A stretch of DNA of 64,000 bases from Escherichia phage vB_EcoP_SU7, in sequence record NC_070980.1. One strand, 5' to 3'. Below the pieces are notes generated by a model that saw only the letters and a list, made by a program, of their open reading frames with translations, was not told the origin of the DNA and did no database searches. Numbering within the stretch: position 1 is the first letter of the stretch; the number at the start of each line of letters is the position of its first letter. The translations under genes and the position numbers were made by a program. Below, one piece after another: positions 19,706-48,311 of the stretch.

Positions 19706-20294
19706 AGAGACCTCTCCGTGTCTCTTCAATAATCCACTCTAAATCCTCAACTGCCTCTTCTACAGAACGGTCATTAAAGAGGAGGTAGGTTGGTAGGTTT
19801 GTTCCTTCAATATAAGAACGGGAGTCCCCTTCAAAGGAGCAGCCATCGCGGAGAACCTGAACCACTCGAACATGGAAGTGTTTCTCTAGTTCTTCAACTT
19901 CTGCTTTAAAACCACCATCAGAGAAGACGATAACATCATTCTGTGATGGGATATGTTGTTGGATACTGCTAACAGCAAGTTTACCCATGCAGGTCTCACC
20001 AAACATAGGCTTCAGGTAATTCTCGCTAGTTGCAATCATCAAGTCTCGAACTGACTTACCGCCCCATTCAGGACGGACAAGTTCTTTCCACTCACGGTCG
20101 TTGTACAGCTCCATGAACTCGTAAAGAGGTAGACCTAATGCAGCAGCAGCCACTCGATACATAGGCTCCTTAAAAGCCCTTACATGCGGCCTAAACTCAG
20201 TGTTACCAGTGGTCTTCTCTAACCAAGCACTGGCGATTGTATCTTTACCGCAACCCGGAGGTCCATTTAGAATTACTACTAATGGTTTACTCAT
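19698..20294 (-). CDS. P-loop kinase, deoxynucleoside monophosphate kinase-like
   Basis: Walker A NGPPGCGKDT; size and layout resemble phage dNMP kinases (recalled, not searched). Confidence 0.45.
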   Translation of the reverse strand: MSKPLVVILNGPPGCGKDTIASAWLEKTTGNTEFRPHVRAFKEPMYRVAAAALGLPLYEFMELYNDREWKELVRPEWGGKSVRDLMIATSENYLKPMFGETCMGKLAVSSIQQHIPSQNDVIVFSDGGFKAEVEELEKHFHVRVVQVLRDGCSFEGDSRSYIEGTNLPTYLLFNDRSVEEAVEDLEWIIEETRRGLYV

Positions 20295-20944
20295 TATTGA
20301 ATCATCCCTTGAAGATCTTCTTTATCAAAGTGCTTCTCTACTACCGCTTCATACAGATCACGATTCTCCGAATAACGGCGATAGAAGGTTCCGTGTGAAA
20401 TTCCCAGCTCTTGCTGGATGTGATCATGAGGTATACCGAGGAAGAGCATTGAGAACATACTTGCCATCTTGCGGTTTTCCATAATATCACTTAGGTCCTG
20501 GAAGAAGAAAAAGATTCTAGATTCCAAGAATGGGTCTCCAGTAGAATCATGCTTATCCATAGCAATCTCTAAAGGACTTTCCCATGAATTCATCTCGGGA
20601 GGTCTAAACATATCAGCCTCTGGAATAGAATAGATACGTCTGTCTCCAACTGTCTGACGATTAGAACGAATCGACCAGATGATATTCTTCACACGATAAG
20701 TCATGTGTTCAATATCTTTTTCATCGGTAAGCAATAGTTCTTCTTGCTTTGCAAATACAAAACGCCAAGAGTTCAGTAACACTTCCTGAGCAACATCCTC
20801 TGCTTCGTGATAATCTTTAATGTCGTACATAAAATACTTATGCACAACTTTCCAATTCTCTCGATAGAATTCATCGAAGGTTGGGTAGTACTTAATAGGT
20901 ATGCCATGAATACGATAGCGTGTGGGTGTTGTCTTTTTCTTCAT
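20294..20944 (-). CDS. phage-encoded sigma factor-like protein
   Basis: Region 2-like [13 protein letters not shown] and region 4-like [15 protein letters not shown]. Confidence 0.5.
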
Positions 20945-26676: not shown

Positions 26677-27283
26677 CATTCAGTTATTCCCAAATTACTT
26701 CGGGTGTCGGACTATATCATAACAGCATAGCTAATTTGCTGTTGTTGGCGCTTCGAGGGTTTCCCTGTTAACCCCCTACTCCCTTAGGATAGTCTCTACA
26801 CTTTCCACTTCCGAATCCATCTACAACCGATTCCGAAGCTCACACCAAACTTCTCTGCAAGATGTACACCAGAGCATTCTGTTTCTAGCCAATAAAGCCT
26901 TGCAGCTTCTTGTCTATCTCCATTTCTTCCAGTGTTTGATTCTATTGCATGTTCTGAACCTTCAAGCATTTCTAAGTGCTCAAGATTGGAACAAGCCCTA
27001 TTCTTGCATTTGTGATTTATTTCATAACCATCAGGAATAGAACCAAAAGATTCTTCCCAAACATATCTATGATACATGACCCATTTGCCATCTATTACTT
27101 TTCTGAAATAACCATCTTTGTTAAGTTTGTGTGAGATAGGGATGATACACCCTGTTTCGGTTGTTTCCAAAACAAGAGTTTTCTTAGCCATATCATCTCC
27201 TAATAGCTTAGCTCGGTATTGCCCCCAACTTAATGGTAGGGTTTCACCGAGTTCACCAACTTTTACATGCACAATGAAAGTTT
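26677..27283 (-). mobile_element. group I self-splicing intron with HNH homing endonuclease ORF, inserted in DNA polymerase motif C
   Basis: P1: exon end CAUGCAU pairs with intron GUGCAUG (U.G at splice site); R-like AGAGACUA (26790-26797) and S-like GAUAUAGUCC (26709-26718) form P7; P9 hairpin with GUAA loop; terminal G at 26677; splicing restores …VIDMH|DEGQ…. Confidence 0.7.
26796..27191 (-). CDS. intron-encoded HNH endonuclease
   Basis: YEINHKCKNRACSNLEHLE HNH motif; ATG at 27191 preceded by AGGAG (track start 27272 is GTG inside P1). Confidence 0.65.
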   Translation of the reverse strand: MAKKTLVLETTETGCIIPISHKLNKDGYFRKVIDGKWVMYHRYVWEESFGSIPDGYEINHKCKNRACSNLEHLEMLEGSEHAIESNTGRNGDRQEAARLYWLETECSGVHLAEKFGVSFGIGCRWIRKWKV

Positions 27284-30795: not shown

Positions 30796-31536
30796 TCATT
30801 GAGACCCCTTCTCCATTGCTTTAACAATCGCCTTACAGAAACCAGAACGAACAATGTCATCTGATTCACCATCTACAATCTCAGCGAACTCATACAGATC
30901 ATGTTCATCAATAAAGTTAGTAGCCCAAGTAAGACCACTCTCACGACCACGCATATCATGCTGGTTAGTATCACCCATGCAGAACAGCTGAGAGGTTTCT
31001 CCCAATCGGGTCATGATTGAGAAGGCTTCATCCTTAGTTGTGTTCTGGAACTCATCTACGATAACAATAGCATCATTGAAAGAACGACCACGGAGATATT
31101 CCAGAGGTACGAACTCAATGTTACTGTTACCGAGCTGGCATTCATAGAACCCCTTACCATATCGCTGAGTAATAACATCAATGATGGGCATCAGGTAAGG
31201 TTCAAACTTCTCACGCATTCCTCCCGGAAGTAACCCAAGAGAGTTGCCCATGCCAACTGAAGGTCGACTCAGAATGATCTTCTGAATCTTACCGCTCTTC
31301 AGTGCATCAATAACTGTGGAAGTGATTACAAAGGTCTTACCACAGCCCGCAGGAGCGTCTGTGAACACAACTTGTTTAGTCTTAATAGCATTGAGTAGCT
31401 CAGACTGAAACTGGTTCTGAGGGACTACAGGCTTTGCTAAAACCACCTCTTCATACTCTCGCTTACCCTTATGAGTAACAAGTGCTTCCCGACGAAGGTC
31501 TTTCCGTGATTCTTTCCGTGATTGACGACGACTCAT
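30796..31536 (-). CDS. phoH: PhoH-like ATPase
   Basis: Walker A APAGCGKT; LGLLPGGMREKFEPYLMPIIDV; DEFQNTT. Confidence 0.75.
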   Translation of the reverse strand: MSRRQSRKESRKDLRREALVTHKGKREYEEVVLAKPVVPQNQFQSELLNAIKTKQVVFTDAPAGCGKTFVITSTVIDALKSGKIQKIILSRPSVGMGNSLGLLPGGMREKFEPYLMPIIDVITQRYGKGFYECQLGNSNIEFVPLEYLRGRSFNDAIVIVDEFQNTTKDEAFSIMTRLGETSQLFCMGDTNQHDMRGRESGLTWATNFIDEHDLYEFAEIVDGESDDIVRSGFCKAIVKAMEKGSQ

Positions 31537-32576: not shown

Positions 32577-33224
32577 TTAACTCTCCAAAGTTTTCTTCAG
32601 GGCTGCCCACGAGATTGGGTAGAGTTTAGCCATCTCTTCGTCTAGAGATTGGGCAAACACTCGAACTTCATATTGAGCGTGAGATGAGAGTCGCTGACGA
32701 CACAACTCAAACCAGCCATACAAAGAACCAGTCCAGTACCAAGTAGTTATCATACCTTGAGGCAAAACAAATCTAGCCTGTTCCGGAGCAATAAATTTAA
32801 TCAATTCATCATAACTAGCAAGAGATGCTTCATACGCAGAGTTAAACAAAGCCAAAGCTTTTGCCTCCTCTTCCCCTTCAAGAAGCGCTCCAGAACCAGA
32901 GTGTAAATCATCTGGACGAGAGAAAATTTCTTTAGGTATGAAAATATCCACTGCTCCGTCTTTGTATCTACGACTCATCTCATTCCAAGAGAATCCAACT
33001 TGATGTTTTTGTAGCTGTCGTGCGATTGCTATCGGGGCTTCACACCGGAAGCTTGCTTGTGGGTGACGAAAAGGGCTTACATGGCGTTCTCGAGCTAAGA
33101 AGTTAATAAGCCGAGTATCATTTTCTTTCAGCTCCTCCCTTTCTACTCCCATAGTTACACGAGCGGCATTTACCACAGTAAGGTCTGATCCGAAGTTATC
33201 AATTAGTGAAGCTTTGATTGTCAT
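32577..33224 (-). CDS. thyX: flavin-dependent thymidylate synthase (ThyX family), divergent motif
   Basis: Aligns by eye to ThyX across AARV, SPF.H, F..APIA.ARQ, SWNEMSRRY, SHAQ.E, but the canonical RHR is KHQ here. Confidence 0.65.
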   Translation of the reverse strand: MTIKASLIDNFGSDLTVVNAARVTMGVEREELKENDTRLINFLARERHVSPFRHPQASFRCEAPIAIARQLQKHQVGFSWNEMSRRYKDGAVDIFIPKEIFSRPDDLHSGSGALLEGEEEAKALALFNSAYEASLASYDELIKFIAPEQARFVLPQGMITTWYWTGSLYGWFELCRQRLSSHAQYEVRVFAQSLDEEMAKLYPISWAALKKTLES

Positions 33225-33690
33225 TTATATAAATCTCCTTGACTTTATTATATTCCCTAGAGGCCTCTTCTACGGTTGAGAAGAGTCCTATATGCTTAGA
33301 TTTAAATACAGCCCGATAAGCAATAGAACCACTTTTCCTTTTATGAACAGTTACTCCAATTACTCCAGTGGATAAGTTATTACTCTGTGCTACCCTATTA
33401 AGACTGTTTCCTGCTTTAGTAGTCCCTCTAAGATTCTCTCTTTTGTTGTTCAACCTGTTGCGGTCCAAGTGGTCTACCTCTTCAGGAAGCGAACCAGTGT
33501 CCCACCAGTAAGCAAGACGGTGAGCGTAATACTTAACACCTTTATAGATGATTCTCAAATACCCATTGGTATTTACAGAACCAGCTATAGATCCTTTGTG
33601 TCCTTTTCCATAAGTTTTAACCCATCGGAAATCTCCAGTCAAAGGGTCGTAATCAAGAGCTTCTTTTATTGATAGGTCAATGTCATTCAT
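33199..33690 (-). CDS. HNH homing endonuclease with AP2-like domain
   Basis: VDHLDRNRLNNKRENLR (HNH) and GVIGVTVHKRKSGSIAYRAVF (AP2-like); directly upstream of thyX. Confidence 0.65.
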   Translation of the reverse strand: MNDIDLSIKEALDYDPLTGDFRWVKTYGKGHKGSIAGSVNTNGYLRIIYKGVKYYAHRLAYWWDTGSLPEEVDHLDRNRLNNKRENLRGTTKAGNSLNRVAQSNNLSTGVIGVTVHKRKSGSIAYRAVFKSKHIGLFSTVEEASREYNKVKEIYINDNQSFTN

Positions 33691-33705: not shown

Positions 33706-33981
33706 TTACTTTTTGTTCAGAGCTGTATCCAAAAAGGCTTTCAGGTTTGCTTCAGTTTGCATACCGGACAAGCTGTAATGAGCACCACTGTTCTTATCAG
33801 GGATGACAAAGGCTGGGATACTGCGAACACCATATTCAATGGCTCGCTCTCGACCATCACCTTCGGTGATATTTACTTCTTCAACTTCTACGTTGTAATC
33901 ATCTACAACCTTCTTAAACACAGGAGCCATAGCTGCACAAGGTGCACATGAATTACTATAAAACTTAATCACTTTACTCAT
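33706..33981 (-). CDS. thioredoxin
   Basis: …KFYSNSCAPCAAMAPVF… CxxC active site; ATG at 33981. Confidence 0.6.
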   Translation of the reverse strand: MSKVIKFYSNSCAPCAAMAPVFKKVVDDYNVEVEEVNITEGDGRERAIEYGVRSIPAFVIPDKNSGAHYSLSGMQTEANLKAFLDTALNKK

Positions 33982-34171: not shown

Positions 34172-34357
34172 TTATAGCATACAAAGAATAATAACAAGAG
34201 GTAGTGTTATAGCAAAATGTACCAGAACAACACTACCTAGCTTGATAGCTTTAACATCCTCTTCTGCTGGGTTTTCTTTAATTGCTAAATTTCGAGCTTT
34301 ATATATAACAGTACCAACTATTAACGACCACACGGCCCACACAATCAGTGAAATCAT
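34172..34357 (-). CDS. small two-TM membrane protein (tandem paralog)
   Basis: Two hydrophobic helices flanking …KENPAEEDVKAIKLGS…. Confidence 0.45.
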   Translation of the reverse strand: MISLIVWAVWSLIVGTVIYKARNLAIKENPAEEDVKAIKLGSVVLVHFAITLPLVIILCML

Positions 34358-34366
34358 ATCAAACCC

Positions 34367-34588
34367 TTATGCAGTCAACAGGTGGAGAAGGAAAGGAATC
34401 ACAATAGTACAAACTACCAGAGCGATGCTGCCATGTTTAATAGCTTTAGCTTCACTTGGATTTTCTTTAAGCATCTGCTTCTGGGCCAGATAGACGATAC
34501 CACCAATAATGATTGCCCAAAAAGACCATACGATTGCTGAAAACATATTCACATCCTTATAAAGAAGTTCGCCCCACCTCTTAAACAA
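34367..34588 (-). CDS. small two-TM membrane protein (tandem paralog)
   Basis: Same layout as the previous ORF (…KENPSEAKAIKHGS…). Confidence 0.45.
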   Translation of the reverse strand: MFKRWGELLYKDVNMFSAIVWSFWAIIIGGIVYLAQKQMLKENPSEAKAIKHGSIALVVCTIVIPFLLHLLTA

Positions 34589-34609: not shown

Positions 34610-35185
34610 TTAGTAAGACACATCACCACTAGAGTGGGACATGTTGCTCTTGACGAAGTAACAGAACTTGCCAAGACCTTCATTAATTTCTTGAAGCATA
34701 CTCTGGTCCACTGGATAGGTGCACAAGTCTGAATCAAACTCATCCATCTTCTCAATGATACACATAAGAGTCATGCACATGTCGGAAAGCATACCGTCCA
34801 TGTCAAGATCAGCGTTACCTTCTCGGAACCAAGCATGACCTAAATAATTACTAGCAGTAGCATCCACCTTAACACAATGAAAGCGCATACGCTCTGCTAT
34901 TCGGTCGCCTGCCTCACGAGCATAATCTTCTAGTTCATCGAACATACCATGAACACCTTGGAAACCAGCTCCAGAGACGTTCCAGTGGTAGTTCTTTGCT
35001 TTGATGTGTAGAAGTTCAAGGTTAGCTTGCACACCACACAAGATGTGTTCTAAGCTGTTACCGCTAATCAGTTTATTCATTCCCTCAAGACGAGAGATAG
35101 AAGAGTCAGTAGTAGAGAATGGGTTGCTAGAACCCACTCGTGTTAGTTCTGGTAAGTCGAAGACATTATTATGCATTAGGTGCAT
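34610..35185 (-). CDS. Dps / ferritin-like protein
   Basis: …ANLELLHIKAKNYHWNVSGAGFQGVHGMFDELEDYAREAGDRIAERM matches the Dps di-iron helix pattern. Confidence 0.5.
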   Translation of the reverse strand: MHLMHNNVFDLPELTRVGSSNPFSTTDSSISRLEGMNKLISGNSLEHILCGVQANLELLHIKAKNYHWNVSGAGFQGVHGMFDELEDYAREAGDRIAERMRFHCVKVDATASNYLGHAWFREGNADLDMDGMLSDMCMTLMCIIEKMDEFDSDLCTYPVDQSMLQEINEGLGKFCYFVKSNMSHSSGDVSY

Positions 35186-35516
35186 CCCCTTCTAAGTTAG
35201 TTGAATTAGCTACATTACGAGCAATGTTATCCATGACCTGCTGTGTAATAACAATGCAATTCTGAGGGTCTACTGATTTAGAACGCCCCATCTCAGGGTC
35301 ATAGACTTTGACTCGCTTGGCTGTTGAGCCAGTAACTTGCAACACTTTGAGAAGATAGCCTTGGTTTCCAATAGACCATGCAACAACATCACGATTCTTG
35401 ATATAACGACCAAGCATGTCACGATGATAGAACTGCTGCATAACTTTAGCTTTGCTAATCTCTTCAGATGGCGGGGCCACTTTACTCAAATCTAACATAA
35501 CTCTCTCCTGTTTCAT
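35169..35516 (-). CDS. hypothetical protein
   Basis: 115-aa ORF preceded by an intergenic promoter-like motif. Confidence 0.45.
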   Translation of the reverse strand: MKQERVMLDLSKVAPPSEEISKAKVMQQFYHRDMLGRYIKNRDVVAWSIGNQGYLLKVLQVTGSTAKRVKVYDPEMGRSKSVDPQNCIVITQQVMDNIARNVANSTNLEGDAPNA

Positions 35517-35568: not shown

Positions 35569-35775
35569 CTAGTAATAAACCTTGCTGGATATGAATCCAG
35601 CACTGTTATGGATATTTTCAATCCAACGATGAATCTCCACCTTTTCAGCGAGACCTAAAGCTTTTGTAGCTTTCTTAGCAAGACGAGCTTCTTGTCGAGT
35701 GTCGAATAATTTAAGACAATCACCACCAAGGTCTTTGTTAGCCCATTTAACGCGAACTGCCCATAATTTAGCCAT
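35569..35775 (-). CDS. small hypothetical protein (tandem paralog)
   Basis: W.VR.KW…TRQEAR..KK shared with the next ORF. Confidence 0.45.
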   Translation of the reverse strand: MAKLWAVRVKWANKDLGGDCLKLFDTRQEARLAKKATKALGLAEKVEIHRWIENIHNSAGFISSKVYY

Positions 35776-35987
35776 TAGTAATGTACCTTTCCGCTGATAT
35801 AGAAACGACCTGATTTAAAGTCTTGAGCTTTGTGGATAGTGATCTTATTAATTGTGCTTTCACAACTTAACAAGAACTTCTTATGAGCGCGAGCTTCTTG
35901 ACGGGTGTTTCTAATACCCATCGACTCTGCACCACTACTCCAGCGAATACGAACTACCCAACGTCTTTTCATTGTTCCAAACTCCAT
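35775..35987 (-). CDS. small hypothetical protein (tandem paralog)
   Basis: W.VRIRW…TRQEARAHKK. Confidence 0.45.
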   Translation of the reverse strand: MEFGTMKRRWVVRIRWSSGAESMGIRNTRQEARAHKKFLLSCESTINKITIHKAQDFKSGRFYISGKVHY

Positions 35988-35990
35988 CAG

Positions 35991-36524
35991 TTATACGCCT
36001 TTAGAAGCAACTACACCATTACTACCGTTATAACGACCCTTCACTGCATAGGAATCATCACCAGCGTGAGAGTGTTCAAACATAACCATTTGACCAACAC
36101 GCATCCCAGCACGAACTCGTAAGCTGTGATTGTGGGTAACGTTATGGAACTCAAAGGTTAGCTTACTGCTATTAAACCCTGCATCAGCCCAACCAGCATG
36201 TAAGTGGTTCAAACCACAACGAGCCATAGAGGAGCGAAGTACAAACAGACTTGAGATGTTATCTGGAAGGTTAAACTCTTCCATTGAGTGAGCTAAGAAG
36301 AACTGTCCCGGAGTGATGACAATGCCATCTTCAGGGATTTTCACTTCTTTCCACTTGAGGTTTTCTTTAGCATCAATGTCAACAATACCATCAGCCTGTT
36401 CTTCAACAAGGATAGTATCACCAATACGGATATCCACGCTAGCAGCGTTAACATATTTATGCTCCGCATCTAAAAAGCCATTATCAATAACGCTGTGTAA
36501 TTCTTGAGAACCTAAAAGACTCAT
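35991..36524 (-). CDS. dCTP deaminase / dUTPase-superfamily enzyme
   Basis: NAASVDIRIGD… and C-terminal …GMRVGQMVMFE fit the dCTP deaminase family. Confidence 0.6.
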   Translation of the reverse strand: MSLLGSQELHSVIDNGFLDAEHKYVNAASVDIRIGDTILVEEQADGIVDIDAKENLKWKEVKIPEDGIVITPGQFFLAHSMEEFNLPDNISSLFVLRSSMARCGLNHLHAGWADAGFNSSKLTFEFHNVTHNHSLRVRAGMRVGQMVMFEHSHAGDDSYAVKGRYNGSNGVVASKGV

Positions 36525-41505: not shown

Positions 41506-42741
41506 TTACAGAGTTACTGCTACTTCGCTACCTTCAACATTGACAGACTCTAACTTGCGAGGGTTATGAATCTGGACTGGATTGACCGGAACGTTCCAAC
41601 CACTGCGGTAGAAGTTACGACCATCACAGAACAGGATGACATTGGCAGACATTGCATTCGGTTGCAGGTTGTTGTGGACATGACGGATATTTGCAATCCA
41701 GTAGCCACGAGACAAAGTGTAGCCAGTAGGTGCATTACGAATAGTTTGAGTATTCATCTGACCTTCCAGTTGCATTTCTTCAGGAACCACATCAACTGAA
41801 TCAATCGGCTGTGCTACTTGTCCTTCCAGTGCAAAGTTTTCATCATCAGCACTTTCACTGTCAGCAACCAATTCACCGTCCCCGTCTTCAATCGGAGTCT
41901 GGTAAACCACTTTATACTGAGGGGTATAGAGAGGGTTCTGAGCTTTAACAAACTCAAGAATGTTGTGACGATAAGTATCCAGAGTCGTACCAGTCAGTCC
42001 CGGTGCTGTGTTAACTTCCAGTACCCATGCTTCTTGACCTTTGGTGATAATATCAACTGCACCGAAATCCAGACCCATTGATTCAACAGCTTTCACCGCA
42101 TTGATCAGAGAGGCATCATTCGGAGCATCTGTGAAGGAGCTTGAGTAAACCCAGCCAGTGTGGTGATTACGAATATCTTCACGATAGTTAGGGTCTTCGC
42201 GATAACCATTGCGACGAATCTTCTTCTGAACATAGGTGATTACACCTTTGAACACATGGACACGCCATTCACGACGTGGGCCTTGAATACCTTTAGTGTA
42301 CAGCTCAGCCTGATCAACTGTAGTGTTAGGCTCTACAACAACAATACCTGAACCAGAGTGACCAGTCAGCTCGTGACGCTCATACACAATGTTGCCAGCG
42401 TTTGACCACTCCTGAGCAGTCTCTTGAACATCTGTGTATTCCACAGTTTTAACACCTGCTTGGTCCATCACACTGAAAGCACGACGTTTGTTCGCTGCCA
42501 TATGTAAGGCTGCGGTACGGTTAAGGACGGTTGCAGAACCAAAGAATGATTCAGGATAGCGACGGTTCCCGTAGTTAACAACCACATCATCTTCACGAGA
42601 ACGCCAGCGGCTATTCTCTGAAAGAAGCCCCATCACGTTAGCATTGATGCGTTCATCACGGATAGTATCACTGATAGCAGATACCAGAGCGTTAACAGAA
42701 TCAGACGGGCCATACGGAAGAACACGGATACGAGTAGTCAT
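41506..42741 (-). CDS. ATP-grasp ligase
   Basis: AWVLEVNTAPGLTG is the ATP-grasp Mg-ATP E-x-N motif; 411 aa. Confidence 0.65.
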   Translation of the reverse strand: MTTRIRVLPYGPSDSVNALVSAISDTIRDERINANVMGLLSENSRWRSREDDVVVNYGNRRYPESFFGSATVLNRTAALHMAANKRRAFSVMDQAGVKTVEYTDVQETAQEWSNAGNIVYERHELTGHSGSGIVVVEPNTTVDQAELYTKGIQGPRREWRVHVFKGVITYVQKKIRRNGYREDPNYREDIRNHHTGWVYSSSFTDAPNDASLINAVKAVESMGLDFGAVDIITKGQEAWVLEVNTAPGLTGTTLDTYRHNILEFVKAQNPLYTPQYKVVYQTPIEDGDGELVADSESADDENFALEGQVAQPIDSVDVVPEEMQLEGQMNTQTIRNAPTGYTLSRGYWIANIRHVHNNLQPNAMSANVILFCDGRNFYRSGWNVPVNPVQIHNPRKLESVNVEGSEVAVTL

Positions 42742-42743
42742 TT

Positions 42744-42974
42744 TTAGATACCTTTTAGTTTAAGAATTTCGTTACGACAGGATTGAATTTTAGCTTCGAT
42801 TGCCCAATACTCAGCGAACATTTCGTCTTCTTGGGCATCGCTTGGAGAGTCGATTAAGTTAAAAGCAAACGGATACAGCTTTCGCTGCTCCGTTACCAGT
42901 TGTTGAAGTCGGAGTTGTTGATACTCCAGCATTGTCAGGTGAGGCTTAGCTCCCTTGCTTGACATGAGGCTCAA
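42744..42974 (-). CDS. small hypothetical protein
   Basis: 76-aa ORF directly downstream of the ATP-grasp gene. Confidence 0.4.
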   Translation of the reverse strand: MSLMSSKGAKPHLTMLEYQQLRLQQLVTEQRKLYPFAFNLIDSPSDAQEDEMFAEYWAIEAKIQSCRNEILKLKGI

Positions 42975-43179
42975 CTTTAATCCCCTTCATTTTAACATAG
43001 TCAGCCAACACGTTGTTGATAACGGTTGGAAAAGGGATTTCTACTGGAGAATCAACCAGCTTCCCAATACCTTCTTGCATCCACTTCTGAATTGCTCGGA
43101 GGTTATCACATCCTGTGCTTGTCATCGGAATACGGCGGGTAGTTACCACGTTATCCAACATCAGTTTACGAACTTCCAT
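42946..43179 (-). CDS. small hypothetical protein
   Basis: 77-aa ORF. Confidence 0.4.
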   Translation of the reverse strand: MEVRKLMLDNVVTTRRIPMTSTGCDNLRAIQKWMQEGIGKLVDSPVEIPFPTVINNVLADYVKMKGIKVEPHVKQGS

Positions 43180-43190
43180 AACTATACCTC

Positions 43191-45224
43191 TTAGTGTTTA
43201 CCTTTACAGTAATCTGAATTACAGATCACCCTGTTTTCTTTGTTCAGTGAGCAAGTTTCTGCATCACGCCACGGAATTTGTTTATAACAGACTGCACAAA
43301 ACCCAATTGAAGTCCAGAGGGCTTTTGTGAACTCGGCTGTTCGTTGTCCATCATAGCTGACAACTGTTTTTCGGAGAGAGGTTGACTTTTTTGGAAATGT
43401 CTCCGCTTTCTCAGCGGGTACCTCCTTTGGGGAATTCTTTGGACCATAAACAGAGATGGCATAAGTATCACCACCACGTTTTTCCAAATACGAATTAGGA
43501 ACATCTGCAAGTGTAATATCCCCTGAACGTTTTGCTGAGCTAACCATTACGATCATACGGCTAAGCATACGTTCATCAACACGAACAGCTACTTCAGGAC
43601 GACGTGGGTTGGTTGTGTCTACTGCTTTAGTCCAAATATAACCCTCAGATAGAGTAACATTCTTTACTTTATCTTTGATTTCTTTGGAGCAGATATAACA
43701 AACATCTTCACCACGAAGTTTACTCATTTCGTTGTCAAACTCGAAATCAGTCTTGACTTCACCACAGACAGCACATACGCCCAAAGGCACATCTTCTTCA
43801 TCTTCAGAGATTTTAGATAACGCTTCGAAGCATTCTGGATGCCAGTATGCTTGATAAGCAAACACAGCCTTACGAGCATCTTTCCAGTCAATGTGCTTAT
43901 CACAACCACCACAATCACCATGAGAGTGAGATTCCCAGAACTTACGAGTGACTTCTACACCATTTTTAGTGATGAAGGAGTCCTCTGCATCAAAAGGGAT
44001 GTCATCATCAAAATCAGCAGTAGTGCTTTGAGGCTCCTTATCTGTAGCATCAACAAACAGCCCTGAAGTTAGTACGAGGCGAATCATACTGTCCACTTCG
44101 GAGATACAAGCAATCGTCCCGCGATATACTACCTTTGGGTTTTCAAGAGCCTTAAGATATTCATCTTTGGCTACGTTGTGAACATCCCCTTCGACATACT
44201 CTTGGGCTTTATCGTCGTAGATGTAACCAATCATCTTACCACGATCTGTGTTGTTATAAGCATGGAACTCGTGAGGAATAATATCCACACGACCATCACG
44301 ACGATAAGGAAGACCACGATCGGCAGCCAGTTTGTTCTGGTCTTCAATCGCTTTACGACGACGAATGTCTCCGCTTGTCACGCCGGGCTTGTCGTCTTTG
44401 TTTCCGTAAATGTCGCTTGTGCTGCTGCTTGATTTGTTTGTCTGTTGGTTCTGATATAGAGAGGAGTTCGAGTAATAGCCGCCCCAGCGACTCGTTATCG
44501 TAAAAACCGGAAGCTTGTGCTCCACCTCTTGAACCAGAGTCATACGACTGTTAGACACATCAAAGATATACTCAGTTCCCACTTTACATTCGAAGTGGTC
44601 ATTGATACGGTTCTTGTGGGATTTAGAACGCTCTAAAATCCACATAAGCATAGCTTCTTCAGAAGCCCCAAACCAATCTAAACCACAACGGGCTAGGTGG
44701 AAAGGACGCTCATCATTACGGATAATGTGAAGCGTGTTGTCTTTAGCATCATGCCAAATCAAAGTGAATGCACCATCCAGTTTTTGGATAGTCTCTGCTG
44801 CTCCAATGGTATTAATTGAGTGGCAGATGTTTTCACTATCAACTTCGAAACGCTTACTGTCAGGAAGGAGATCTTGATCTAACAGGGTTCCATTATGAAC
44901 CAGAGTAATATCCCCGTGAGTAAATGGGTGAGCATTTCGAGCATTGACAGCCCCACGAGTGGCATGTCGGCTGTGACCAACAATCCACGAAGGAGGAACT
45001 ACGTAGTTCGTAAGCCCTTTGGTAATATTTGTATATTCTGTCTGGAGCATAAAAGCATAAGAAGGAAGAGCTTCTTTATAAGAGAAGACTTGCTTTTCAC
45101 CTTTACGCTGACCAAACACACCAGTTGAGTGCTGTCCACGGAAAACACCAGCATACAGAAGTTGGTTGAAAATATCCAAATCTGTTGAGGTCATGTTGCC
45201 GCCAGCTAATACGATACCACAAAT
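43191..45224 (-). CDS. class II glutamine amidotransferase-like (Ntn hydrolase) protein with C-terminal Cys-rich zinc-binding region
   Basis: In-frame CGIVLAGG sits just 5' of the track ATG and is preceded by AGGTGG plus an ATT codon 8 nt downstream; GVFRGQHSTG; C-terminal CxxC clusters. Confidence 0.5.
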   Translation of the reverse strand: MCGIVLAGGNMTSTDLDIFNQLLYAGVFRGQHSTGVFGQRKGEKQVFSYKEALPSYAFMLQTEYTNITKGLTNYVVPPSWIVGHSRHATRGAVNARNAHPFTHGDITLVHNGTLLDQDLLPDSKRFEVDSENICHSINTIGAAETIQKLDGAFTLIWHDAKDNTLHIIRNDERPFHLARCGLDWFGASEEAMLMWILERSKSHKNRINDHFECKVGTEYIFDVSNSRMTLVQEVEHKLPVFTITSRWGGYYSNSSLYQNQQTNKSSSSTSDIYGNKDDKPGVTSGDIRRRKAIEDQNKLAADRGLPYRRDGRVDIIPHEFHAYNNTDRGKMIGYIYDDKAQEYVEGDVHNVAKDEYLKALENPKVVYRGTIACISEVDSMIRLVLTSGLFVDATDKEPQSTTADFDDDIPFDAEDSFITKNGVEVTRKFWESHSHGDCGGCDKHIDWKDARKAVFAYQAYWHPECFEALSKISEDEEDVPLGVCAVCGEVKTDFEFDNEMSKLRGEDVCYICSKEIKDKVKNVTLSEGYIWTKAVDTTNPRRPEVAVRVDERMLSRMIVMVSSAKRSGDITLADVPNSYLEKRGGDTYAISVYGPKNSPKEVPAEKAETFPKKSTSLRKTVVSYDGQRTAEFTKALWTSIGFCAVCYKQIPWRDAETCSLNKENRVICNSDYCKGKH

Positions 45225-45301
45225 TTTCTAATCCACCTGAAGGGTAAACCCTTTCATCTAATTAACCTTTAAATGCGCCCTTTATCAGAGCGCCCATTGT
45301 G

Positions 45302-46402
45302 TTACAGCAGTCGTTCTAATTGCATTTCCAGATGGTCTGGAATGTAATCAGTGATGTTATTATCACTGCTACCTGATTCACGCATCAGAGCAAACATGTG
45401 ACGAATTTCACGAACCGTTGCGATTCGAGTGCTTTCAATCTGAGGGGTGTAGTAGGTCATGATCTCTTCATAGACAGTGTTGGCATTACCGCGCACATAT
45501 CCCAAGAAACCATAGAAGTCATTCATATCACGTAAGTTGATAAGGACTTCACCATCAGGGCCAGTCTGTTGCACACGAACACGACCAACCAAAGTTACAG
45601 ATTGCTCACGACAGAACAGAATATCACGAGCAAGACGATACCCTTCAGTGAGATCACTGTCTCTTGGAGTATAGTCTAGGGGTAGATGTTGAATCATAGG
45701 AGCGAAGCGCAGCTCATTCAACTTCTCAACATAAGCTTCATTGTCTAAATCTGCATATTCAACAGCCAGTTTCTTGAGAACCAAGAAGCGGTTGACCAGA
45801 TTCAGAAGTTGGCTCTTTTTCCACTTCGGCTCTGAGATACGGAACTCAACAGAACCAAATTGAGATAGAGGCAAAAGATTAAGGGAGGTATATTTATCCC
45901 AGCTATTAACAAGAGAGTGGAAGAAAGCTTCCCCGTCTCGGTTGAACGCTGACGAAGCATTCATAACTTGTGCTTGAACGACAGCAAAAGCTGGACAGAA
46001 GTTGCTACGATAGCGATGGTATCCAGAACATTTGAACATCATCTTTTCATAGAACGTCCATCCAAGAATAACTTTCTTAAGGATATTACTATCAGCGTCA
46101 CGCATATCCATATGAACGTGAGTGGAACAGCGCCAAGTTCCCTCGGCTCCAGAATCCTGTACTGCTTCACTCAGATTGTTAATAGCACGAAGTAATTCTT
46201 CACCGTTGTAAGGTCGTGCACATACTAATTCACAACCATCACGAAGAGAGCCATCTTCAGTACAAACCCACATATCAGCGTCAATGTTAGTTGTACCTTC
46301 GACTTCTAACTCAATACCAACACCACACTGAAAAGCAATACTTGGATGCGGTTCAGATAAGCGAGGGTTACGGTATCCAAAAACTTGTGCTACGGTTGTC
46401 AT
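45302..46402 (-). CDS. glutamine-synthetase-like amidoligase (putative carboxylate-amine ligase)
   Basis: GIELEVEG and STHVHMD metal-binding-type motifs; sits next to GATase II-like and AIG2-like genes. Confidence 0.4.
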   Translation of the reverse strand: MTTVAQVFGYRNPRLSEPHPSIAFQCGVGIELEVEGTTNIDADMWVCTEDGSLRDGCELVCARPYNGEELLRAINNLSEAVQDSGAEGTWRCSTHVHMDMRDADSNILKKVILGWTFYEKMMFKCSGYHRYRSNFCPAFAVVQAQVMNASSAFNRDGEAFFHSLVNSWDKYTSLNLLPLSQFGSVEFRISEPKWKKSQLLNLVNRFLVLKKLAVEYADLDNEAYVEKLNELRFAPMIQHLPLDYTPRDSDLTEGYRLARDILFCREQSVTLVGRVRVQQTGPDGEVLINLRDMNDFYGFLGYVRGNANTVYEEIMTYYTPQIESTRIATVREIRHMFALMRESGSSDNNITDYIPDHLEMQLERLL

Positions 46403-47025
46403 AATGATTCCACCAACTCTACATTATATGATGACAGGTCTGAAGAAATATGCTTGAACTTCTCCAGAAGGTTTAAAGATTGACGACCATTGTCGCCATA
46501 ACCAGCTTCAAGAAGCACGTTTCCAACGTAAGCTCCTTTGTAATAAACTTTTCCATCGACAGGATTGATATAGATGAAACGAGTAACCAACCCTTCAAAC
46601 TCTGGATTAAACAGGTTGTACACCAAATCACCCGGAATCGAACGTCCGAGAGAAGGTGGAGTACCACGAAGTTTATTCCCCATCAATCCTTTAGCTCGCT
46701 GACGAACAGGGTTGATATGGGTCCAGCTCACCATGTTATTACCATGCTGAAGGTATCCTACATCTGGAGACTCCAGAATGAGGCTGTGATCAAACACTGG
46801 GATATTACTAACAATCTGACGCTCAAACTGACCTTCGGAGTTTTTAGTCCAGCGTTCCGCCTCAAACACTAAAGACATTTCAGCGTCGTGTGAGTAGTCG
46901 TCGATATCAAAGTTACCTTGCTGACGAACATCAAGCACATATAGAGGGAGGTTTTTACCATCAGGTGATCGCTGAGCAATCCATGTTCCACAATAATAGT
47001 GTTGAAAATCTCTTAACAAGCTCAC
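46399..47025 (-). CDS. hypothetical protein (cluster member)
   Basis: 208-aa ORF, stop-start overlap with the amidoligase. Confidence 0.5.
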   Translation of the reverse strand: MSLLRDFQHYYCGTWIAQRSPDGKNLPLYVLDVRQQGNFDIDDYSHDAEMSLVFEAERWTKNSEGQFERQIVSNIPVFDHSLILESPDVGYLQHGNNMVSWTHINPVRQRAKGLMGNKLRGTPPSLGRSIPGDLVYNLFNPEFEGLVTRFIYINPVDGKVYYKGAYVGNVLLEAGYGDNGRQSLNLLEKFKHISSDLSSYNVELVESL

Positions 47026-47034
47026 AATATCACC

Positions 47035-47844
47035 TTATACAATCTGGAGTTTAGAGGAGAATTTATCCGCTTCTTTAACATCGTTACTGTTGATGATGTT
47101 GTGAAGCTTTTCAATTGGAAGGCGAGAGTGAAGTGACATCAATACTTCCATATCACAGCCTTGAACAACCTTATCAACTTGCTCATAAACAAACTTGCGG
47201 GTTGACTTCTCGCCAATCCAGAAGTTAGAAAGAGAACGATATTCAATACCGTAATCTTTGTAGCGAATGGCAGAAGCCTTTCCGTATAACTCTTTACGAC
47301 GAGTATCTTTATCCATGATCACAGCTGGCAAGGACAGGAAGTAATCACACAACACACCTAACATCATTTGAGTCTGACGACTAATTTCCAGCGTACCAGT
47401 GACGCCAAGGTGAACATGACCACCAGCAGTACGCAGACCTTTGTCTGTCGCTACTGGAGATGGGTTTTTCTGACCAGTGAAGGCGTTGAAATCAGGAGTA
47501 CAACCAAATACAAAGGCTGACGGATGGAAAGATTCCATCTCTTCTGAAGTGAACACATGAGAGCTAATCCCAAGTGCTGCCTCCATGCCACGTTCATTGA
47601 GAACTTTGTTAGTCAGATCAATACCACGCTGAATGTTATCATTAAACGCTTCAAACCCTTTCTGTGGGTTAATATCGAACTCGGCCAGAACGTTGTCTTC
47701 TTGAAGACGAACATCAGGGGCCAGATCAATTTTGTTGTCTTTAGAGCAGCCCAGCTTACCAGCCACAGAGGTGATAATACCAGAAGCAGTACGAACAAAC
47801 ATTTCCGGATCCGACCCTATTAAGAATTTACGTTTAGTAGTCAT
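47035..47844 (-). CDS. hypothetical protein, possibly a second carboxylate-amine ligase-like enzyme
   Basis: IGSDPEMFV and GGHVHLG motifs; assignment weak. Confidence 0.3.
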   Translation of the reverse strand: MTTKRKFLIGSDPEMFVRTASGIITSVAGKLGCSKDNKIDLAPDVRLQEDNVLAEFDINPQKGFEAFNDNIQRGIDLTNKVLNERGMEAALGISSHVFTSEEMESFHPSAFVFGCTPDFNAFTGQKNPSPVATDKGLRTAGGHVHLGVTGTLEISRQTQMMLGVLCDYFLSLPAVIMDKDTRRKELYGKASAIRYKDYGIEYRSLSNFWIGEKSTRKFVYEQVDKVVQGCDMEVLMSLHSRLPIEKLHNIINSNDVKEADKFSSKLQIV

Positions 47845-48311
47845 GCTTTAGTCCAACCTTTATGAGATAGATAGTTTTTAAATCTGCCACTGTGCACAGC
47901 GCCCATGTGGCCTTGATGTAAGTCGTTGCTTCTACAGAAGTCTTTAAGATTGTATATTGTTACAACCTCGCCATCTGGAGATCTAAACTTCCAAAATCTA
48001 GCATTCCCTTTCACAGCGTTTTCTTCACTGGTCAGAAGTTGGAAATTACTTGGGTGGTTATTAAGTTTATCGCCATCGATGTGATCAACAGTCATACCAT
48101 CCGGAATAGGCCCAATAAACAATTCATACATAAGTCTATGTAATAAAAAGTTCCTTGTTATCTTTTCAGGAGCCTGAACTGTTGTAAACTTAAGATAACC
48201 ATCTTTATCAGGAAACAGTTTCCTCTGTTTCCCTGTTCTTGCATGGAATATACTACCGTCTTCGAACACCAAGAAGGTAGCAACTCCGACTACTAACTCC
48301 CTAAATTCCAT
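47841..48311 (-). CDS. HNH homing endonuclease
   Basis: VDHIDGDKLNNHPSNFQLLTSEENAVKG. Confidence 0.6.
   Translation of the reverse strand: MEFRELVVGVATFLVFEDGSIFHARTGKQRKLFPDKDGYLKFTTVQAPEKITRNFLLHRLMYELFIGPIPDGMTVDHIDGDKLNNHPSNFQLLTSEENAVKGNARFWKFRSPDGEVVTIYNLKDFCRSNDLHQGHMGAVHSGRFKNYLSHKGWTKA

Follow-up and report, generated by a model that had tools for sequence, protein, structure and literature searches.

The 64,000-nt stretch of Escherichia phage vB_EcoP_SU7 (NC_070980.1) that was analysed here, called the window in the following, carries a gene whose product almost certainly belongs to the Dps family. Taken as a whole, the observations are best explained by a Dps-type mini-ferritin of the phage's own, a cage that would oxidise and store iron and shield the replicating phage DNA; this account is held with moderate confidence. 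The identification as such is already present in the annotation of the phiEco32 record and in the literature. To the known annotation, a corrected start, an argument against DNA binding, lineage-specific extensions, a coupled partner gene and a conserved gene module are added here.

Gene structure and start site

The list of open reading frames gives an unbroken frame of 191 codons at 34610..35185. It lies on the minus strand, which the sequence-only reading of this DNA had not specified. This mechanical frame reaches up to an ATG at 35185; translation most likely starts at the second ATG (35176) instead, which would give a protein of 188 aa. The assignment is based on the spacing of the Shine-Dalgarno-like GAAGGGG, which touches the first ATG without any gap and stands 9 nt upstream of the second, on the database homologues, all of which begin at the Met of the second ATG, and on the invariance of this Met in the alignment of homologues (A1). 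With this start, the gene and the stop of its upstream neighbour share 8 nt, as is typical of translational coupling. The features of the region are compiled in Table 1.

Table 1. Positions of the Dps gene, its elements and further genes in the window
Feature	Position	Strand	Basis and remarks
Dps-family (mini-ferritin) gene, most likely extent	34610..35176	(-)	188 aa plus stop codon; Pfam, PHROG and PDB matches, AF2 model, start-site argument
Lineage-specific N-terminal extension, 41 residues from the proposed real start	35054..35176	(-)	Alignment A1, charge table, AF2
Ferroxidase-centre codons H67-W68...H79...D83...D94...E98 (end of helix A and helix B)	34892..34987	(-)	Alignment with E. coli and Listeria Dps
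C-terminal tail NMSHSSGDVSY	34613..34645	(-)	Alignment A1, tail listing; pLDDT <50
Shine-Dalgarno-like GAAGGGG	35186..35192	(-)	Within the end of the upstream gene; read from the sequence
13-bp stem-loop	34570..34600	(-)	10 nt past the Dps stop codon; terminator scan, folding
Upstream partner, phiEco32 gp68 homologue, PHROG 10984, 109 aa	35169..35498	(-)	Synteny in four lineages
dCTP deaminase	35991..36524	(-)	Pfam DCD, E=1.6e-34; synteny
Thioredoxin	33706..33981	(-)	Pfam PF00085, E=3e-13; synteny
ThyX, flavin-dependent thymidylate synthase	32577..33224	(-)	Pfam Thy1, E=5e-43; synteny
PhoH	30796..31536	(-)	Same strand as Dps
phiEco32 gp79 homologue, 76% identity	41240..41479	(-)	
Phage sigma factor, PHROG 1740	20294..20944	(-)	

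The hairpin behind the stop codon was calculated to fold with -18.6 kcal/mol (z=-2.7) and is followed by only a weak T-run. Both arms of the stem, but not its loop, are conserved in phiEco32 and Bas86. The hairpin may terminate transcription, attenuate it or stabilise the mRNA, and in one of the latter two functions it may set the expression of Dps apart from that of the downstream genes for small membrane proteins. A dedicated promoter was found neither by the sigma-70 scan, which gave fewer sites near the Dps gene than in shuffled sequence, nor by the scan for the gp36-type motif TAATGTAT, which is absent near the gene.

Family membership and predicted fold

The Pfam family Ferritin (PF00210) was matched with 32.9 bits, above the cut-off of 24.5, but with the single sequence the match spans residues 59-102 only. 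The sequence diverges in its second half. PHROG 3636 was matched over residues 40-184 with E=1e-52. When solved structures were searched with the single sequence, the best-ranked matches were all Dps. A profile of the family with 29 members matched Dps chains in the PDB end to end, with E=3.5e-27 for Dlp-2 of B. anthracis. Each of the profile matches listed is a Dps-family protein or a Dps-based chimera, among them one chain deposited as 'putative bacterioferritin' and one engineered Dps-bacterioferritin fusion.

An AF2 model built on the family alignment reached a mean pLDDT of 83 with values above 90 in the core. It consists of the helices A (residues 45-69), B (75-102), C (129-149) and D (158-180) with a short BC helix (111-116). 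This is the architecture of Dps, namely, a four-helix bundle with a helix in the BC loop and without a fifth (E) helix. Compared to the PDB with Foldseek, the model gave Dps in 50 of the 50 matches listed, with an rmsd of 1.2-1.6 A over 134-142 residues and target-normalised TM-scores of up to 0.92. A Dps/ferritin-like protein had been proposed from the sequence alone, to be checked by a profile search and a structure prediction. Both bore it out: the Pfam score is above threshold, the PHROG and PDB profile matches agree with it, the predicted bundle is confident, and the ferritin-like fold as well as the ligands, either of which might have been missing, were found.

Two other assignments were discarded. 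A 24-subunit ferritin or bacterioferritin does not fit, as no maxi-ferritin occurred among the listed sequence and fold matches and the model shows four long helices plus the BC helix. The DNA-binding Dps of the E. coli type (NCBIfam equivalog NF006975) was matched with 34.7 bits against a cut-off of 114, and the protein has no lysine-rich N-terminal tail. Its score stayed under every other NCBIfam equivalog cut-off as well.

Conservation of the ferroxidase centre

The protein shows the pattern Y-H67-W68-N-V...H79-G-M-F-D83...D94-R-I-A-E98, and thus all six residues of the Dps ferroxidase helix pattern that the sequence-only reading had recognised. They align column by column with H51/W52/H63/D67/D78/E82 of E. 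coli Dps and with H31/W32/H43/D47/D58/E62 of Listeria Dps, both reference sequences having been checked only via the published ligand numbering. H67, W68, H79, D94 and E98 are invariant in all 29 homologues and D83 is kept in 28, and the full HWHDDE pattern occurs in 28 of the 29 at identities from 26 to 98%. Conservation over such a range argues for selection on the metal site and not on the fold alone. Ferroxidase function is likely to have been retained.

Charge, terminal extensions and DNA binding

The phage protein is strongly acidic with a pI of 4.9 and a net charge of -14 per subunit, compared to -4 for E. coli Dps. With three K/R against four D/E, its N-terminal extension has a net charge of -1 and shows no clustering of lysines; basic residues are absent from the C-terminal tail, which does include acidic ones. 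Given these values, the label 'DNA-binding protein' is doubtful for this acidic form without a basic tail, and the phage Dps is unlikely to bind DNA as E. coli Dps does.

These features also bear on the alternative that the protein is a nucleoid-type DNA binder or condenser, which would coat the phage DNA or compact the host chromosome. Such a role is implied by the name inherited with the family. Many cellular Dps bind DNA, and short, basic N-terminal tails (MLGARPKRP, net charge +3) are present in the short forms of the related phages 7-11 and Privateer. However, several Dps without such tails, e.g. from Listeria and Agrobacterium, are not known to bind DNA, and the coating of DNA would not need invariant ferroxidase ligands. 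Together with the charge of the window's protein and of its two tails, this makes a DNA-condensing role rather unlikely.

The extensions themselves are conserved. Across the long forms, the N-terminal extension keeps the motif MHNNxFDLP at its very start and the motif S-x-x-R-L-[ED]-x-M. It is a low-confidence region of the AF2 model with a single predicted helix at residues 29-41, which covers the second motif. The final residue is Tyr in 16 of the 17 homologues aligned to the last column, a count that omits one further long form truncated before this column; the exception has His. The long forms are furthermore rich in Cys and Met, with 6 Cys and 13 Met in the phage Dps compared to 0 and 4 in E. 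coli Dps.

The conservation of the termini suggests a function beyond plain detoxification. Detoxification alone accounts for neither the extensions nor the coupled gp68-like gene. It is conceivable, if unlikely, that Kuravirus-type Dps is a specialised cage with a non-basic N-terminal extension and an acidic, Tyr-ended C-terminal tail that dock to a partner. This partner could be the coupled gp68-like beta-barrel protein, the replisome or the capsid. In case of the capsid, Dps would be carried in virions, as a phage counterpart of the ferritin-like cargo in HK97-fold encapsulins.

Gene neighbourhood and iron-dependent enzymes

The sequence-only reading had placed the gene next to nucleotide-metabolism genes, which agrees with the genes for dCTP deaminase, thioredoxin, ThyX and PhoH found nearby, all on the same strand (Table 1). 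The module of dCTP deaminase, thioredoxin, gp68-like protein, Dps, ThyX and PhoH recurs in Kuravirus-like phages, Grimontviridae, Lahexavirus phages and one uncultured contig. The gp68-like gene stands directly upstream of Dps in Kuravirus-like phages, Privateer and vB_CsaP_009, LAh_8 and one uncultured contig, and it adjoins thioredoxin in 7-11. Its product had no match in Pfam or NCBIfam. The AF2 model (pLDDT 64) gave only generic SH3/Tudor/KOW-like barrels with Foldseek (E>0.01), so that a small SH3/Tudor-like beta-barrel is predicted with low confidence.

Alternatively, Dps could serve as a store or donor of iron for enzymes of the phage or the host that need this metal in nucleotide synthesis, for instance ribonucleotide reductase or Fe-S activases. 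In line with this, Dps is always found among nucleotide-metabolism genes. In LAh_8, genes annotated as large and small subunits of an anaerobic ribonucleotide reductase lie within about 2.5 kb, and a protein of about 95 residues encoded directly downstream of Dps in Privateer, 7-11 and LAh_8 is among other names annotated as ribonucleotide reductase. In the window, however, no iron-dependent enzyme such as ribonucleotide reductase was annotated in the 25 ORFs of the Dps strand that were scanned (18 of at least 150 aa and seven shorter neighbours; PHROG scans, with Pfam in addition for the ten nearest), and the small downstream protein is missing. Anaerobic ribonucleotide reductase genes were seen near Dps only in the distant relative LAh_8, an Aeromonas phage. 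ThyX is a flavoenzyme, and neither ThyX nor dCTP deaminase nor thioredoxin is known to be an iron enzyme. Dps are moreover poor iron donors compared to ferritin or bacterioferritin. An iron-donor role is therefore unlikely, and the suggestion from the sequence-only reading that the protein might support the iron-dependent chemistry of nearby enzymes found no footing in these ORFs.

The small protein that follows Dps in the distant relatives has about 90-99 residues and is encoded in Privateer (L083 3398..3694), 7-11 (L084 3408..3707) and LAh_8 (L085 3429..3701). The three proteins are homologous to one another and are variously annotated as ribonucleotide reductase (by similarity to NrdD), as hypothetical protein or as regulator of the Zn-ribbon/ATP-cone family. 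A tblastn search gave no counterpart in the window.

Some further features of the surrounding minus strand were recorded. Tandem pairs of small paralogous genes are located at 34172..34357 and 34367..34588 as well as at 35569..35775 and 35775..35987; one pair belongs to PHROG 9296 (hydrophobic, membrane-like) and the other to PHROG 4939. phiEco32 carries a single copy of the first tandem gene, and at the site of the second pair it has three small genes. The pairs point to duplication or loss, on a local scale, of the small accessory genes on either side of the Dps pair. Three genes for HNH homing endonucleases are present (33199..33690, 26796..27272 and 47841..48311). The first of them lies between thyX and the thioredoxin gene and shares 26 nt with the start of thyX; Bas86 has it and phiEco32 does not. 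The region 41506..47844 contains genes for an ATP-grasp/S6-glutaminyl-transferase-like protein, a glutamine amidotransferase, an amidoligase and a COOH-NH2 ligase, which are typical of phiEco32-like phages.

Distribution and origin

The same-strand genes of the surrounding block are 89-96% identical at the DNA level to those of phiEco32-like E. coli podophages (Gordonclarkvirinae). Annotated proteins of HC-25922, Bas86 and Bas87 match the Dps of the window at 100% identity, several others at 99.5% and phiEco32 gp67 (ABY52868) at 84%; the latter is named 'DNA-binding protein, member of the Dps family' in GenBank EU330206. With tblastn, relatives were detected in 145 out of 50,697 phage records, and full-length copies are present in 96 of the approximately 98 phiEco32-like genomes, i.e. 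those detected with the surrounding 10 kb. The earlier statement that Dps homologues are not routine phage cargo thus holds for phages overall, but not for the phiEco32-like lineage, in which the gene is nearly universal. Dps is a core gene of a phage group used in therapy-oriented collections. More distantly related copies, at 33-43% identity, were seen in Aeromonas Lahexavirus and in the prolate podophages Privateer, 7-11, GAP52 and vB_CsaP_009; some Streptomyces and Synechococcus phages gave tblastn matches that were weaker yet. Among 1.84 billion cluster representatives, only 12 clusters were matched at E<=1e-10 and only two at 1e-30, and the phage Dps clade is small and isolated.

In a scan of 185,579 species genomes, which is biased by its search patterns, the best match had 43% identity and was located on a scaffold of 568 bp; the others were cellular Dps with 27-34% over comparable lengths. 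The GC content of the gene equals that of its neighbours. Since no copy above 43% identity was found in these genomes and the composition matches, the gene must be regarded as old and specific to this phage lineage rather than as the host's dps captured recently. Against solved structures, the single sequence gave E-values of about 0.04-0.09 for E. coli Dps and 1e-9 for MsDps2, and E. coli Dps was matched less well than Dps of Gram-positive bacteria. The signal for the origin is split, with the single sequence favouring Dps of Actinomycetota and the family profile those of Firmicutes, and no donor could be named from the single-sequence, profile and species-genome comparisons.

The gene is labelled 'integrase' in dozens of deposited genomes, including IME267, ES17, MLP3, E20-1, 172-1 and PAS59, and the database cluster P0003 carries the same name. 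This is a propagated misannotation, which could flag strictly lytic phages as temperate in screenings for therapy.

Expression and detection in phage preparations

The Dps gene is common to all five C3 podophages sequenced by 2014, and the SU10 paper places it among the middle genes (PMC4281155). Expression is documented for the SU10 protein CDS67, which is 82% identical to the window's Dps: it was detected with 6 peptides and 35.8% coverage, the top peptide count among the products of middle genes, and the gp68-like CDS68 was detected with 2 peptides (PMC4281155). A homologue was also found by mass spectrometry in CsCl-purified particles of Privateer, in which ten proteins predicted to be virion-associated were verified; the authors call the function of the homologue unverified (PMC7881722). 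No biochemical or genetic study of any phage member of this Dps clade was found in the literature searched.

These detections could mean that Dps is packaged in or attached to the capsid and perhaps delivered to, or active in, the next cell, in parallel to encapsulin cargo; the conserved terminal extensions could then be targeting signals, and some Dps-fold domains of uncultured phages are part of proteins annotated as prohead proteases. On the other hand, the SU10 sample also contained DNA polymerase, thioredoxin, PhoH, a sigma factor and early enzymes and was therefore not a preparation of pure virions (PMC4281155). The gene belongs to the middle (replication) block and not to the structural block, and the one Dps fusion protein that was examined (L104) is encoded outside any head module. 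Being dense, a Dps cage loaded with iron could simply band together with phage in CsCl. A virion-associated role is accordingly unlikely.

The Dps-fold domains in question are found in BFVD within much larger proteins of uncultured phages (A0A6J7XDU5, A0A6J7WPK9 and A0A6J7WIS1), of which some are annotated 'prohead protease'. Real fusions of this kind would put a Dps domain inside proheads. They were rejected, as the long Dps-containing representatives P0124 (777 aa, two Dps domains), P0112, P0141 and P0074 show the Ferritin domain only and the context of L104 is not a head module.

Proposed role

For the favoured account, a mini-ferritin that protects the phage DNA, the mechanism would follow that of the cellular enzymes. 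By analogy with all characterised Dps, twelve subunits, each a four-helix bundle, would assemble into a hollow cage. Each two-fold interface would hold two ferroxidase centres to which one subunit contributes H67, H79 and D83 and the other D94 and E98, and W68 would act as a radical trap. Fe(II) would be oxidised at these centres, preferably with H2O2, and the ferric mineral would be stored inside the cage. Both Fenton reagents would thus be removed during the heavy DNA synthesis of the phage. Iron sequestration and protection against oxidative stress, the roles considered in the sequence-only reading, are plausible. ThyX has an oxidase side reaction that yields H2O2, and the neighbouring ThyX may itself be such a source in air.

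A rationale for a phage-borne copy may be provided by the gp79 homologue, which presumably shuts off sigma-70 transcription in the infected cell. The host could then presumably not induce its own Dps, catalase or AhpCF. An inhibition of sigma-70 transcription by gp79 is described in two papers (PMC12276001; PMC8948821).

A virulent phage would in this case bring its own predicted defence against iron and peroxide, which has been kept in at least three lineages within one nucleotide-synthesis module. This retention suggests that oxidative damage limits the DNA synthesis of these phages.

Comparison with known systems

The closest counterparts are phiEco32 gp67, SU10 CDS67 and the other members of PHROG 3636. 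They are orthologues with 82-84% identity, the same length and the same terminal extensions. In phiEco32 and SU10, Dps follows the gp68 gene and precedes the genes for thioredoxin and ThyX, as it does in the window, which adds small genes and an HNH endonuclease between Dps and thyX. Otherwise, there is essentially no difference.

The short forms of Grimontviridae and Lahexavirus, namely, Privateer gp068, 7-11 AEK81988 and LAh_8 gp125, share the ligands, the module and the gp68-like neighbour at 33-43% identity. At 144-156 aa, they are without the long extension at the N-terminus and without the tail that ends in Tyr at the C-terminus. Several have the short basic N-termini described above for 7-11-type phages and Privateer, and Dps is followed by the small protein that is absent in the window.

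Cellular Dps from E. coli, Listeria innocua, B. anthracis (Dlp-2) and M. smegmatis (Dps2) have the same four-helix bundle with BC helix and an identical inter-subunit ligand set (H, H, D / D, E) with the conserved Trp. The identity to the phage protein is only about 20-33%, and the host's Dps is no closer than those of Gram-positive bacteria. The phage form differs in being far more acidic, in the absence of a basic DNA-binding tail, and in its 41-residue N-terminal extension and acidic tail ending in Tyr.

Dps-family genes are also carried by 'Gratiaviridae' of the gut and by Lactobacillus phages. These are unrelated lineages with anaerobic or Gram-positive hosts, and the Dps of Lactobacillus phages match the window's protein at the level of the fold only, without being detectably close in sequence. 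A gut-phage survey from 2021 proposed an anti-oxidative role for these genes, i.e. a limitation of oxidative damage, and stated that Dps-like enzymes were until then known from seven Lactobacillus phages only (PMC8008677). This statement overlooks the phiEco32 group.
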